Source of the DNA: Bacteriovoracaceae bacterium
Lineage (GTDB): Bacteria > Bdellovibrionota > Bacteriovoracia > Bacteriovoracales > Bacteriovoracaceae
DNA length: 64,000 nt
Assembly: GCA_048270185.1 (NCBI GenBank)
Contig: JBLWTJ010000001.1
Location: 1,248,001-1,312,000, forward strand
Direction of reading: 5' to 3'
Part shown: piece by piece, positions 50,523-55,690 of the stretch
How the letters are laid out: every line of letters begins with the position of its first letter
Numbering within the stretch: the first letter of the stretch is position 1
The notes under the pieces: generated by a model
What the model saw: the letters and a program-made list of their open reading frames with translations, nothing else
Told to the model about the DNA's origin: nothing
The model's database searches: none
Translations under genes and position numbers: made by a program

Positions 50523-51668
50523 TTAGATTTTAACATCCTTAAAGATAACCTTAAGGAAACTGTTAGCTTTATCTAATAATTCAAGATATTCGCTATGCGC
50601 CTCACTGAGTAAAGTGATTCCTCCTCCTGCCCCATATAGAGCTTCCTTAGAAGATTTTGACACACTAAGCGTACGGATATTTATAGACGAGGTCTTCATA
50701 TTTTGAAAATTTAAAACTGTTGAACCAGTGTAAATTCCTCGGGAATTATTCTCAATATTTTTTATAAGTTTTAGTACTCTCTTCTTTGGAGCACCAGTGA
50801 TACTGCCTCCAGGGAAGATGGCCTTGAGAATTTTTGCACTATCGTACTCGTCCATGGCCACACTAATTTGTGAATATTGATGAATCAGGCCCGGTACTCG
50901 AAAGAACTCTCTTTTAGCGTCCACTTGCGAAAAAGAGTCTCCAATTCTTGAAAGATCATTTCTAAGAAGATCGGTAATAATATTTAGCTCACTCTCATTC
51001 TTCTCATCTCCAGTAAAGCTCTCAATACCCTGTTCTTCTCTGACTGTTCCTTTGATAGGTCTTGATATCACACGGCCATTTTTAAAGCAGTACAGACACT
51101 CTGGTGAGTTACTGATAATGAGCTCATCATTTACTTCTAAATTTATGAGATGGGCAAACTCACTGAGGTTTGAAAAAGTCTCTTGGCACAAGAAAGTTTT
51201 CTCAAGTTTATCAAGATCATCGACTTCAAACTTCAAAAGAGAAGTGAGATTTAATTGGTAGCAATTACCATCGAGGAGATTTTCATAAGTCTTTTTAAAT
51301 TTCTCTTCATATTCTTTAAAAGAAATAATACTTAAAGGCTTCGCAGTTGTTTGATCAACATCTTTTAGTGGCTTTATTTCACATGACTCGCTAAAGTCGA
51401 TAAATGTAGCAAGCTCGACTTCCACTTCTTCACTAACTTCTCCCCATTCAAAGAGCATTCCTAATTCATAGTAGAGAACTTGTACTTGCCAGGTATCACT
51501 TAAAATTTCATGAAAGGATTCTTTTGAAAAAGGAAGTGTTATTCCTTTTAGGTAATCATGGATAAATAGATTTGTGACTCGAATATATCGAGAAGGCTTA
51601 CTTAAAGATAAGAAGCCTTCTTCTTTTTTAAAGAAAGCGTATGACTTAATGGCCAGGTCTTGCATCAT
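50523..51668 (-). CDS. pabB: Chorismate-binding enzyme, PabB/TrpE family
   Basis: YQLNL, SPE, RPIKGT, DLLRNDL, FPGGSITGAPK, SINIRT; start uncertain (overlaps dnaB end). Confidence 0.8.
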   Translation of the reverse strand: MMQDLAIKSYAFFKKEEGFLSLSKPSRYIRVTNLFIHDYLKGITLPFSKESFHEILSDTWQVQVLYYELGMLFEWGEVSEEVEVELATFIDFSESCEIKPLKDVDQTTAKPLSIISFKEYEEKFKKTYENLLDGNCYQLNLTSLLKFEVDDLDKLEKTFLCQETFSNLSEFAHLINLEVNDELIISNSPECLYCFKNGRVISRPIKGTVREEQGIESFTGDEKNESELNIITDLLRNDLSRIGDSFSQVDAKREFFRVPGLIHQYSQISVAMDEYDSAKILKAIFPGGSITGAPKKRVLKLIKNIENNSRGIYTGSTVLNFQNMKTSSINIRTLSVSKSSKEALYGAGGGITLLSEAHSEYLELLDKANSFLKVIFKDVKI

Positions 51669-53037
51669 CTTGTGCATAGGCCACATTTTCAAAGCTTGTG
51701 TGAGCACCAACGAAAGTTAATTTTGCTGTACCAACTTCACCACCACGGTTCTTACCTAGAATGATTTCTGCTAGACCTTGATCTTTAGTATCTGGGTTGT
51801 AGTACTCATCACGATAAACGAACATAATAATATCCGCATCCTGCTCGATCGATCCCGATTCACGAAGATCGGAAATCATTGGTCTCTTATTCGGACGAGA
51901 TTCAACGGAACGGTTAAGCTGTGAAAGTGCAATTACAGGACACTCAAGCTCTTTGGCCATATTCTTTAGACCCCTTGAGATTTCAGAAATCTGCTGTTCA
52001 CGAGAAAGGGTCTTATTGTGTGAACTCATAAGCTGAAGGTAATCGATTACAACTAATCCAAGACCTTCTGAAGCCTTAATCTTACGACAAGCCGATTGAA
52101 TATCAAGTAAGCTTGTTCCTGCATTATCGTTAATATAAATTGGTAGGTCTGCTAATTGCTGGATTCCTTGACCAATCTTTCTTAGATCTGTTTCTAAGAA
52201 CTCTTTTGTTCTAATTCTCTTTGAGTCAATCTTCGCTCTTTGGGTAAGAAGACGCATTGAAAGCTCTTTTGCCATCATCTCCAGAGAGAAGAGAGCAACA
52301 GGCATTTTAGTCATCTCACAAACGTTTTGAGCAAAGTTAAGAGCAAGTGCCGTCTTCCCCATGGCAGGACGAGCAGCAAGAATAATAAGTTGACCTGGTT
52401 GCATTCCAAGAACAAGCTTATCAACGGCGCCATATCCAGTAGGTATACCTTGAACTTGACCGGCCTTACGAGATGTATCTTCGATCTCTTTAATATTTTC
52501 TTTTAGACATTCATTTAGTTTAATCATACTTCCTTGTTTGGCTTCATTTGTAAGCCCAAAGAAAGTTGCTTCTACTTCTTGAATAAAGTCTTGAGCATTT
52601 CCTGAAAAAGTTGCACCTTTATCTGCTACTTTACGAGCTTGGCGAACAAGCTCTCTTAGAGAAGCTTTGTCTTTAACAGTCTTTGCATAATGTCTTAAGT
52701 TGGCACTTGATACTTGGTCTTCCGTAATATCAAGAATGAATGATTGACCACCAATTCCCTCAAGTCTATTGTGATCTTGGAGGTGGGAACAAATTGTTAC
52801 GTAGTCGACTGGATTATTAGAATAAACCATGTCTTTAATAGCATCATAAACAATCCCATATTTAGGATCGTAAAAGTCTTTTCCTTCTAACTTTAAGTCA
52901 GAGATTTCATCAAAAGATAAACTATCTAGTAATAGACATGACAGAAGTGATTTTTCTGAAAGAGTATCATTTGGAAGTGCTCGCGCACCTGGATTCATAC
53001 TTTGTTGTTGCTGTTGTTCCATCATATTCGGCCCCAT
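51646..53037 (-). CDS. dnaB: Replicative DNA helicase
   Basis: AARPAMGKT, SLEM, IDYLQL, LSQLNR, DLRESGSIEQDAD. Confidence 0.97.
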   Translation of the reverse strand: MGPNMMEQQQQQSMNPGARALPNDTLSEKSLLSCLLLDSLSFDEISDLKLEGKDFYDPKYGIVYDAIKDMVYSNNPVDYVTICSHLQDHNRLEGIGGQSFILDITEDQVSSANLRHYAKTVKDKASLRELVRQARKVADKGATFSGNAQDFIQEVEATFFGLTNEAKQGSMIKLNECLKENIKEIEDTSRKAGQVQGIPTGYGAVDKLVLGMQPGQLIILAARPAMGKTALALNFAQNVCEMTKMPVALFSLEMMAKELSMRLLTQRAKIDSKRIRTKEFLETDLRKIGQGIQQLADLPIYINDNAGTSLLDIQSACRKIKASEGLGLVVIDYLQLMSSHNKTLSREQQISEISRGLKNMAKELECPVIALSQLNRSVESRPNKRPMISDLRESGSIEQDADIIMFVYRDEYYNPDTKDQGLAEIILGKNRGGEVGTAKLTFVGAHTSFENVAYAQDDARPGH

Positions 53038-53103: not shown

Positions 53104-53715
53104 TTAGCTTCTTAGAATTCTATTGGCTTCCATCTTAAGCTTTTCTTCTTCAGAAAGCTCAGTGTTTTCACCATTTGCAGCAGCTTCTTCTTGTTCTTTT
53201 GCAAGAGCTTCTTTAGCAGCTTTTGCAGCAGCAAGTTCTTCTGCTTTTTTCTTGTTTTCTTCTTCTTGAGCTGGATCCATTTTTACAGATACAGTAAAAG
53301 CAGCTTCAATTCCTGCGAAGATTTTAGCTTTAACAGTGTAGCTACCAACTGAACGAATTGGATCTTCTAGAAGAAGGTGTCTTCTTTCTACATCGTGACC
53401 TAGCTTAGCTAGTTCTTGAGAAAGTTCGTGAGTTGTAACAGAACCAAAAAGTTTACCGTTAGTACCAACTCTTTTGATTAGTTCAAGGTTAACACCATTG
53501 ATTGCTTTAGCAACAGTTTCAGCATCAGCTTTATCACCAGCTACTTTCTTAGCAAGTAGTTTTTCGTAGTGCTTAACTTGAGCTGTATTAGACTCATCTG
53601 CAAGAACAGCTGAACCATTTGGGATTAGGAAGTTTCTTGCATAACCAGCAGAAACATTAACAATTTCCCCTACGTTTCCAAGAGACTTTACAGTTTCTTT
53701 AAGAATAACTTTCAT
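53104..53715 (-). CDS. rplI: 50S ribosomal protein bL9 with charged C-terminal extension
   Basis: MKVIL..LG..G..V.VSAGYARNFLIP; KLFGSVT. Confidence 0.96.
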   Translation of the reverse strand: MKVILKETVKSLGNVGEIVNVSAGYARNFLIPNGSAVLADESNTAQVKHYEKLLAKKVAGDKADAETVAKAINGVNLELIKRVGTNGKLFGSVTTHELSQELAKLGHDVERRHLLLEDPIRSVGSYTVKAKIFAGIEAAFTVSVKMDPAQEEENKKKAEELAAAKAAKEALAKEQEEAAANGENTELSEEEKLKMEANRILRS

Positions 53716-53716
53716 T

Positions 53717-54727
53717 TTATATCTCCTTATTATTTTTAAAAAATCTTCTAAAGTTGACCCAATAATCTAGAAGGCCAACAATCGCAATAAAGCGATGAGC
53801 AAAGAAAATAGTCATAATTGCAAGAATTGAGCGGATAAATCCTGTTACCTTGATGTACTTTAAAAAGTCCAGGTAAACACCCATTCCTTGAAAGAAGTAA
53901 AAAACACCTAAGCAAAGTAGAATATTAAGACCAATGATTTCATAAGTCTCACCACCGATATACTCTCCTCCTAAGAAGAGACCAAGACCGACGATAACAA
54001 TAAATGCAAAGTACTCTGGCACTTGAAAGCGAACAAAGTTCTTTAGTCCATACTTGTAACCGTGGAGCATTTTCCACATTGTTGCATTTCTAAGAAGCAT
54101 AAAAACCGTAAGCCAAAGAATGAAGAATGTTCCAACGAAAATTACAGAGAATCCCCATTGATAAACTTTCGTAATAACCTCTTCTGGTTTATCAAAAATT
54201 TGTTGATAAAGGGCGGCCATTTCACCACCACGAGAGATTAATTCTTTGTACTCAGGTGTACTTTTAAGTTGCGTAAAAGATGATGTTACTAGTTCCGTAA
54301 TCGAGTTTGAGATCGCTGAAGGGAAAATCACTTCAATCGTTCCCATGATTCCGAAAATAACTACGAGTAAATAGAAACCTCTTTTTAGAAGTCCTTTAAC
54401 CGGATCTTCATTCTTCAAAATAGTTGAAGCACTTAAGAATCCAATAATCACGGCATAGAATAAGAATGCCGCAGAATTACCAAGGATTAAGAAAGCTTCA
54501 CCGTACTGAGAACCTAAAAAGGCCAATATAATAATCGTTCCAAAGGCAACAAAAGTTTTTAAGTTTCCGTAAAGCAAGAATGCGAAAGCAGCCGGTAGTG
54601 GTGAAAAAACACCAAGTGGATATGCTACGCTTAGAACCAAACAAATTACACACAGAAAGATTAGCTTCCCAATAGTGAAGTTATCTTTCGAAATTGGTGA
54701 AAATGTATTTGGCTTTTTTTCGTTCAT
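53717..54727 (-). CDS. DUF2232/YybS-family membrane protein
   Basis: Multi-TM; YFFQG and GLLDYWVNFR; position between rpsR and rplI. Confidence 0.8.
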   Translation of the reverse strand: MNEKKPNTFSPISKDNFTIGKLIFLCVICLVLSVAYPLGVFSPLPAAFAFLLYGNLKTFVAFGTIIILAFLGSQYGEAFLILGNSAAFLFYAVIIGFLSASTILKNEDPVKGLLKRGFYLLVVIFGIMGTIEVIFPSAISNSITELVTSSFTQLKSTPEYKELISRGGEMAALYQQIFDKPEEVITKVYQWGFSVIFVGTFFILWLTVFMLLRNATMWKMLHGYKYGLKNFVRFQVPEYFAFIVIVGLGLFLGGEYIGGETYEIIGLNILLCLGVFYFFQGMGVYLDFLKYIKVTGFIRSILAIMTIFFAHRFIAIVGLLDYWVNFRRFFKNNKEI

Positions 54728-54761
54728 TACTTTTACTATTTCCTAAAATTTCATTCACTTC

Positions 54762-55370
54762 TTAGTGAGCGAAATCACCTCTAACATGAGAAACTAGACC
54801 AATATTTCTTGCTCTCTTGATAGCTGTTTGTGCCCATCTGTGGTGCTTAGTCGATACACCAGTTACTCTTGATGGTTGAATCTTACCAAATTCGTTGATT
54901 AGCCAGTTGTAAGTCTTTGGATCTTTCCAATCAGCAGTGATGCTGTTTGCTTTAAACCAACAGTTCTTTCTCTTAGCGAATCTTCTCTTGTCTTTTTCAG
55001 CACCTTTTTCAAGTTCATCAGTTTGTGAACCAGCGTGAGCTTTAGAGAATGGAGTCTTGTAGTTTTTAACAGCAGTTTCAGCGTCAGTATCAAGTTTAAC
55101 GATTAGGTACTTGTGTACGTTTTCGTTAATTTTGAAACGTCTTTGAAGTTCTGTGTTTAGGTCTTTGTTTCCTGAAACGATGAAATAGATGTAGTTACCT
55201 GTTCTAGAACCGTTCTTGGCAGTTTGAGCAAATGTTCTCATTCCCCAATCATCAGTTAGGTGAACTTCACCTTCGTAATTTTTTGCAACTTCAGCTACTA
55301 GGTTTTTAAGGCTAGTTTGTTGCTCTTCAGTTGCGCCCGCGTGAGCTACTAATGCTAACTCATAAATCAT
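54762..55370 (-). CDS. rpsF-rpsR: Fused ribosomal proteins bS6-bS18
   Basis: N-half YEL..DWGMRTFA..GNY..ELQRRFKINENV (bS6); C-half DWKDP..FGKIQPSRVTG..HHR..AIKRARNIGL (bS18); one uninterrupted frame. Confidence 0.9.
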   Translation of the reverse strand: MIYELALVAHAGATEEQQTSLKNLVAEVAKNYEGEVHLTDDWGMRTFAQTAKNGSRTGNYIYFIVSGNKDLNTELQRRFKINENVHKYLIVKLDTDAETAVKNYKTPFSKAHAGSQTDELEKGAEKDKRRFAKRKNCWFKANSITADWKDPKTYNWLINEFGKIQPSRVTGVSTKHHRWAQTAIKRARNIGLVSHVRGDFAH

Positions 55371-55425
55371 ACTTTATCTCCTGGACAATAGTTATTATTG
55401 GCTTCCCCACCATAGGGAAGCGAGT
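55371..55425 (-). promoter_or_regulatory. S6:S18-type ribosomal leader RNA (putative)
   Basis: Minus strand CTC-GCTTCCC..GGGAAGC-CAATA..TATTG-T-CCA-GGAG: hairpins, then CCR just before the SD, which can pair with the 5' CTC. Confidence 0.55.
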
Positions 55426-55484
55426 AAATTAACGGTCAATGTGCGCCTAATCTACCAGTCTTGTGGCTTTGTGTAAAGCCATGG

Positions 55485-55690
55485 AAGGTGCACGCAACTT
55501 TTTCGTGAAATCAATAACTTAAAATGAAACAGGTAAAGAGATATACGTCTTTTCAATAAGTTAAAAAATACTCACGAAGTCTTTGCTCACCCGAAGGACC
55601 AAAATAAGCATAAATAGTGGTAAATATTTACAAATACGCACTCAAGGTCAAGATAAACACCTGAAATCTTGAAAAGGTTGCGTGCACCTT
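55485..55690. repeat. 206-bp element bounded by 20-bp inverted repeats (MITE/REP-like)
   Basis: AAGGTGCACGCAACTTTTTC (55485-55504) and GAAAAGGTTGCGTGCACCTT (55671-55690), 19/20 reverse-complement match. Confidence 0.75.

Follow-up and report, generated by a model that had tools for sequence, protein, structure and literature searches.

Ribosomal proteins bS6 and bS18 are encoded as one fused chain across nearly the whole order Bacteriovoracales

We describe a gene that encodes ribosomal proteins bS6 and bS18 as a single polypeptide of 202 amino acids, in a 64,000-nucleotide stretch of a Bacteriovoracaceae genome (hereafter the window). The host is a marine predatory bacterium. The gene is preceded by a promoter-like site and an mRNA leader and is followed by three genes with which it likely forms an operon. 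The features, all on the reverse strand, are:

54762..55370 (-): fused rpsF-rpsR gene, 202 aa (translation; Pfam and NCBIfam matches)
55095..55370 (-): bS6 domain, aa 1-92 (PF01250 at 3-92; fold match; alignment)
54981..55094 (-): linker, aa 93-130, in which a conserved K-x-Y-K-T-P-F-S is followed by an acidic part that varies and by the basic beginning of S18; without a start codon
54762..54980 (-): bS18 domain, aa 131-202, with C137 as the sole remnant of the zinc ribbon and with K185 and R188 of IKRAR retained
55371..55426 (-): mRNA leader of the S6:S18-binding-motif type (alignment of relatives; motif described in PMC3854524)
55424-55422 (-): CUC of the leader, which can pair with GAG of the Shine-Dalgarno sequence GGAG at 55381-55378
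55421-55401 (-): 9-bp hairpin of the leader
55384-55382 (-): CCA that ends the 19-nt bulge of the leader
55449..55477 (-): promoter-like site of the sigma-70 type, TTTACA-17-TAGATT, in which TG precedes the -10 (a match to consensus only; two found against a shuffle mean of 1.0)
53717..54727 (-): gene for a DUF2232 membrane protein, which follows the fusion in the likely operon (Pfam)
53104..53715 (-): rplI, ribosomal protein bL9, 203 aa, with a charged C-terminal tail (Pfam, NCBIfam)
51646..53037 (-): dnaB, replicative helicase, likely the last gene of the operon (Pfam)

Both halves of the chain are recognized by family profiles. PF01250 (Ribosomal_S6) matches aa 3-92 at 60.7 bits against a cut-off of 27 and PF01084 (Ribosomal_S18) matches aa 144-192 at 58.9 against 21; among the NCBIfam models, TIGR00165 (S18) matches aa 131-196 at 54.1 against 38.75 and TIGR00166 (S6) matches aa 1-94 with a narrow pass, 43.8 against 42.9. 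A first-pass annotation of this DNA had described one 202-aa open reading frame with bS6 followed by bS18 and no internal stop, and had proposed a profile scan for the two families on that one frame; the translation and the above-threshold matches bear the description out. It had also noted the lack of a Met ahead of the bS18 part and of ssb between the halves, and here too the sequence agrees: the protein has just two Met residues, M1 and M44, and a single Cys, C137; no in-frame ATG, GTG or TTG occurs beyond codon 44 of the gene; and both ssb genes of the genome sit on other contigs. The whole genome (assembly 95.9% complete) yields one S6 and one S18 match, both in the fused ORF. The two-chain encoding of the canonical S6:S18 heterodimer is absent here: there is one ORF and no internal start. 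Four public runs aligned to the window, all as contigs, and no indels or joints are listed in any of them over the window. Contig X3, from a DNA run of another study, covers 54910-55312 and with it the entire linker, with zero differences or gaps, and contig X4, from an RNA-seq library, covers 54400-55154 with no difference and no gap, although DNA is possible in such a library and transcription is therefore not implied. The first-pass annotation had recommended a look at raw reads for a stop or indel in the linker; at the level of contigs, those of two other studies cross it unchanged.

The linker had been described as a charged stretch of about 35 residues. Charged it is, with 8 K/R and 8 D/E in the 38 residues of aa 93-130, but it is not a mere tether, for aa 102-118 are both conserved and predicted to be ordered. 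Across 186 distinct fused proteins its first half retains K102 (98%), Y104 (83%), K105 (85%), P107 (99%) and S109 (82%), and residue 93 is separated from the first S18 Cys by 35-58 aa, with a median of 47. An AlphaFold2 model built on an 89-sequence alignment has a pLDDT of 78.9 and a pTM of 0.73, the latter a measure of the whole chain and not of the S6:S18 interface; its block means are 79-86 over aa 91-120 and its sole run below 50 is aa 125-135 (a model built without an alignment reached a pLDDT of 40 and was discarded). The pTM suggests that the two domains would pack together. The S6 half of the model takes the S6 alpha/beta fold and matches solved bS6 chains with a target-normalized TM of up to 0.91 and an rmsd of 1.4-1.5 Å, 1G1X and 7P7Q being among the fold matches, and we found no PDB chain that covers both the S6 and the S18 halves. 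A K-x-(Y/F)-(K/R)-x-P segment like that of the linker is also present at the S6 end of relatives in which the two genes are split, and the linker is therefore best read as an S6 tail followed by an S18 N-terminal tail.

The S18 half has lost most of its zinc ribbon. The ligand set of zinc-ribbon (C-plus) S18, CxxC plus C..H, is reduced in the window protein to C137, and among the fused proteins the first Cys is present in 186 of 186 and a second or third Cys in none of them, which agrees with the earlier suggestion that this S18, with one Cys, is Zn-independent. The full zinc set occurs in six of the eight split relatives in the order and in 24 of 30 outgroup S18s; the association between zinc loss and fusion is a pattern and not a test, because kin are not independent. 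Zinc-free bS18 variants were reportedly labelled the C-minus class by Makarova in 2001. The fused S18 shares with that class the broken CxxC...C..H ligand set but differs in being the sole S18, with no zinc-binding paralogue, and in that within the order the loss tracks fusion. The rRNA-binding motif IKRAR is kept, with K185 in 99% and R188 in 100% of the 186 fused proteins. Aligned to solved S18 chains, these residues would correspond to K60 and R63 of E. coli S18, which contact C719/C720 and the leader (PMC4647458). A pattern search of the assembly for the 16S helix-23 site gave no match.

Compared with the canonical bS6:bS18 heterodimer, then, the fusion has the same domains, complete and in the same gene order, with IKRAR kept, an S6 rmsd of about 1.5 Å and rplI downstream in the operon; it differs in being one chain, with neither ssb nor priB between the halves and with a linker of about 38 aa whose first half is conserved and predicted to be ordered. 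Two further differences from the canonical pair are order-wide and shared by fused and split members alike: S6 has FAQP in place of a LAYP-like motif (the alignment gives FAQ(P/T) in the order, the phylum outgroups being mostly LAYP-like there), and S18 has DWK in place of DYK.

The gene is preceded by a leader with a layout common to relatives (CUC-GCU, a variable hairpin, GGC, an A/U-rich loop and CCA-GGAG). In an alignment of 43 of the 70 distinct leaders, base pairing is kept in 97.3% of 301 cells, a value that none of 500 shuffles reaches, with slid controls at 26-65%. The putative CUC/GAG basal stem pairs in 98.4% of cells, with no double-sided change, and is absent from the minimum-energy fold of the window leader; double-sided changes occur in only one of the seven leader pairs. 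CCR stands directly before an SD-like site in 59 of the 70 leaders, and a strict pattern, itself derived from these leaders, matches 54 of the 70 against 15 of 20,000 random genome 90-mers. An Rfam scan over gene and leader gave no meaningful match (three chance matches, E 5-9). With the S6S18CBM/rpsF_leader motif, as set out in PMC3854524 and PMC4647458, the leader shares a hairpin and bulge with CCR, a Shine-Dalgarno sequence that may pair in a basal stem and a position directly before rpsF, and the 9-bp hairpin and 19-nt bulge of the window fit the described hairpin plus 8-23-nt bulge with CCR before the Shine-Dalgarno. It departs from that motif in that CCA abuts GGAG here, whereas 2-3 nt lie between them in PMC3854524, in that the putative basal stem is only 3 bp, and in that the putative effector is a single polypeptide, not a heterodimer. 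In E. coli, binding of S6:S18 to the motif represses rpsF translation (PMC4647458), and leader binding and repression by S6:S18 are known for both E. coli and B. subtilis (PMC3854524, PMC4647458). Given the conserved leader of this type before the gene, repression of the operon by the single chain that it encodes is likely. A mode of control by anti-Shine-Dalgarno sequestration, as in Bacteroidia (PMC9976891, PMC7797042), was set aside because an SD-like site is present in 65 of the 70 leaders examined for this gene.

Just upstream of the promoter-like site lies an inverted pair of ~21-bp repeats (window 55485-55513 and 55662-55690). The repeat motif has eight copies in the genome, making up three inverted pairs and two singles, with sites elsewhere at G000:C1:563168-564089 (L236) and G000:C2:139052-139266 (L237). 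Between the repeats of one pair lies a frame of 225 aa that carries a Y1_Tnp (IS200-like) domain, and the repeats and this frame look like a REP/REPIN-type element with its REP-associated transposase. Downstream of the fused gene, the bL9 of the window (53104-53715) carries a charged C-terminal tail of about 55 aa past its Pfam domain, and similar tails are found in two genomes of the order described below (G014 and G025).

The fusion extends across the order. The closest named relatives, from a search for related loci that returned two, are Halobacteriovorax at 92% identity, and further matches carry the names Bacteriovoracaceae and Halobacteriovoraceae. Among 238 genomes of the order, 217 are fused (three of these are cut by a contig end yet in frame across the junction), eight are truly split, one has a lone stop, two are cut off and ten, all less than 90% complete, have no match. 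The frame is kept down to 37% identity. In the same genus as the window genome, 11 of 12 genomes are fused, one is without a match and none is split, so the look at related genomes that had been advised reveals fusion across nearly the whole order and no split relative within the genus. The truly split genomes (G014, G135-G138, G144, G158 and G159) belong to five genera and have a stop after S6, followed by a Shine-Dalgarno-like site and an S18 with its own Met. The first-pass annotation had proposed that the dimer is covalently fixed in this lineage. At the level of the gene this holds for the 217 fused among 228 order genomes with a match, but it does not hold for the eight split genomes, nor is the fusion unique to the order, because it is also found in many proteins outside the order's clade.

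Several individual genomes deserve comment. G025 (L036:3616-4206), the single genome of the second family in the order, is fused; its genome of 0.9 Mb is 96% complete and long-branched, has a linker of the shortest type and lacks a DUF2232 gene between the fusion and rplI, and it is possibly that of a reduced symbiont. G151 (L078, G151:C61), which has a close fused relative (P0128), carries one TAA in a linker that is in frame apart from it, and no Met precedes the S18 core; the TAA probably reflects a sequence error or a nonsense change of recent date, read-through being another explanation. G153 (L076, G153:C102) encodes, beside the fusion, another S6 that stands alone and whose long tail is like those of other families of the phylum; this extra S6 is probably bin contamination. 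Four genomes (G136, G137, G138 and the outgroup G030) had appeared from open-frame length to be long-linker or outgroup fusions, and their translated loci proved to be separate genes.

Within the wider phylum we sampled 165 genomes, of which 158 had an S6 match, and translated the loci of 55 outgroup genomes, among which are most of the genomes whose S6 frames are longest; a fused rpsF-rpsR was found in none of these 55. In several outgroups rpsF and rpsR are directly adjacent, some of them in frame with a single stop. At the opposite extreme to fusion, several other families of the phylum do not have rpsF and rpsR as neighbours, as seen in L037-L040, L133, L135, L137 and other phylum outgroups, where loci contain S6 only or S18 only.

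Fusions of S6 to S18 also occur elsewhere. A mixed S6/S18 profile run against 1.84 billion representatives gave 67 two-domain proteins among 151 examined: 11 of the Bacteriovoracales type, ten that appeared chimeric or frameshifted and were dropped by eye, and 46 fusions that look clean, most of them single metagenomic records. In the gene tree the 46 fall outside the order's clade (SH-aLRT 99), in several groups. All 24 of the 46 that were scanned with Pfam pass both cut-offs, and in four of these unrelated fusions the Pfam gap between the domains is only 6-10 residues. Two further S6+S18 clusters in the ESM Atlas, each with a score below 0.9, are treated as leads; their commonest taxa are Ca. 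Absconditibacteriota (cluster of 55 members) and Pseudomonadota (cluster of 61). These other natural fusions have the same domain order on one chain, but they lie outside the order's clade and have different linkers, and are therefore likely separate events. Zinc-free S18 is common in some phyla in any case, so that the absence of the full zinc motif from 45 of these 46 fusions in a pattern test is weak support for any link between fusion and zinc loss. We found no description of an S6-S18 fusion in the openly accessible literature searched, and the words 'fusion' and 'fused' do not occur in the main texts of PMC3526173, PMC9297842, PMC3854524 and PMC3353972; JGI labels some members 'ribosomal protein S18/ribosomal protein S6'.

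How the fused and split states are related within the order was addressed with trees. In an RpoB tree of 36 rows picked from 69 (RpoB was not found for the split G014, G137 and G158), the split, zinc-free G159 groups with the fused G018 and G197 (SH-aLRT 95), and the leader of G158/G159 is, by eye, closely like those of the fused G018/G197 genera; together these indicate a later fission, and the G158/G159 genus was probably re-split after fusion. The zinc-bearing split genomes in that tree, G144 and G136 with G138, fall in an open basal fork with G161 and the long-branched G025. In AU tests neither a single fused clade including G159 (p-AU 0.207) nor a clade of the fused genomes alone (p-AU 0.080) is rejected. 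In a gene tree of S6 and S18, from a short alignment, G025 branches as sister to all others (85), and the zinc-bearing split genomes fall among fused genomes within a weakly supported group (90), a placement that would favour several fissions. Most likely, the fusion arose once or twice in the order from a split, zinc-binding state that is still present in four genera; one ancestral fusion followed by several fissions is a live alternative, and we prefer one or two fusions. We note that the S18s of the split, zinc-bearing G136, G135, G137, G138 and G014 (L057, L058, L060, L061 and L034) have acidic N-terminal extensions of 50-67 aa, and that, by eye, the canonical S6:S18 leader is lost in the split G014 and G135-G138 and kept in the split G144, G158 and G159.

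We consider it very probable that the fused chain folds as a normal S6:S18 pair, takes its place in the 30S platform without being cut and binds the leader of its own mRNA. On this account rpsF and rpsR would have become neighbours after ssb left the operon, and, with the stop and restart lost, the C-terminal tail of S6 would then have run on into the N-terminal tail of S18. The resulting chain would fold as a tethered S6:S18 pair, enter the 30S platform uncleaved and repress its own operon via the conserved leader in front. Such a join is likely to be tolerated because the S6 C-terminus is near the 'DYK' interface strand of S18, and the unrelated fusions appear to bridge the S6 C-terminus to S18 with as few as 6-10 residues. 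The benefit may lie in supplying the two proteins at a fixed 1:1 ratio and in supporting the small, irregular S18 domain from within the same chain, or the fusion may have been fixed neutrally, without benefit.

One rival explanation is that the product is a polyprotein, from which cleavage within the acidic portion of the linker releases ordinary S6 and S18. Bacterial ribosomal proteins can be proteolytically trimmed, as in the cleavage of bL27 by Prp, the stretch at aa 125-135 is predicted to be disordered, and the split relatives break at about the same point and work as separate chains. However, neither the sequence nor the length of the acidic stretch is constant (residue 93 and the first Cys lie 35-58 aa apart), its variable part contains no invariant motif, and the 6-10-residue joins of unrelated fusions leave little room for a cut site, so we regard cleavage as improbable. 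We give still less credence to the idea that an internal start in the linker also yields a separate S18, the fusion being one of two products. Although a linker-region Met is found in 58 of the 186 fused proteins, and ATG, GTG or TTG occurs in 22 of 77 fused loci somewhere from aa 96 to a point ten codons ahead of the Cys, the other 128 proteins have no linker-region Met and the window gene offers no candidate codon past codon 44. Moreover, most of the first 40 Met sites listed are 7 residues before the Cys, within the basic segment of S18, and the same Met occurs in split S18s, well downstream of the true start.

That the fusion is an artefact of assembly or sequencing, with a stop codon lost, is hardly credible. 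Ten of the 67 two-domain matches in the representative search do look chimeric or frameshifted by eye, and the lone linker TAA of G151, with no Met after it, could be taken the same way; against this, the linker of the window is crossed without difference by contigs of two other studies, and the frame is kept in 217 genomes and at identities as low as 37%, a conservation that refutes the artefact reading.

A bolder proposal is that fusion is a recurrent structural stand-in for zinc. The ordered first half of the linker would pack on S18 and replace the zinc ribbon, giving a one-chain, zinc-free platform protein and repressor of its own mRNA across the order, with the unrelated fusions as convergent cases. 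We regard this proposal as speculative and rather unlikely.

The fusion is real, order-wide and recurrent elsewhere, though as a system it is not of a new kind. A natural fusion of two core ribosomal proteins is unusual, and here it is fixed in nearly a whole order. NCBI labels the fusions only as '30S ribosomal protein S18' and JGI sometimes as S6 only, and name-based gene counts therefore wrongly score one of the two proteins as missing. The fused or split state is a usable character for the tree of the order, and since the order has named isolates the fusion is open to direct study. Through it one can ask, in a natural setting, why S18 needs S6, whether for folding support or for 1:1 supply, and whether a tether replaces the zinc site. 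By analogy with the known systems, a feedback loop that depends on a heterodimer would have become, in these bacteria, a loop run by a single protein.
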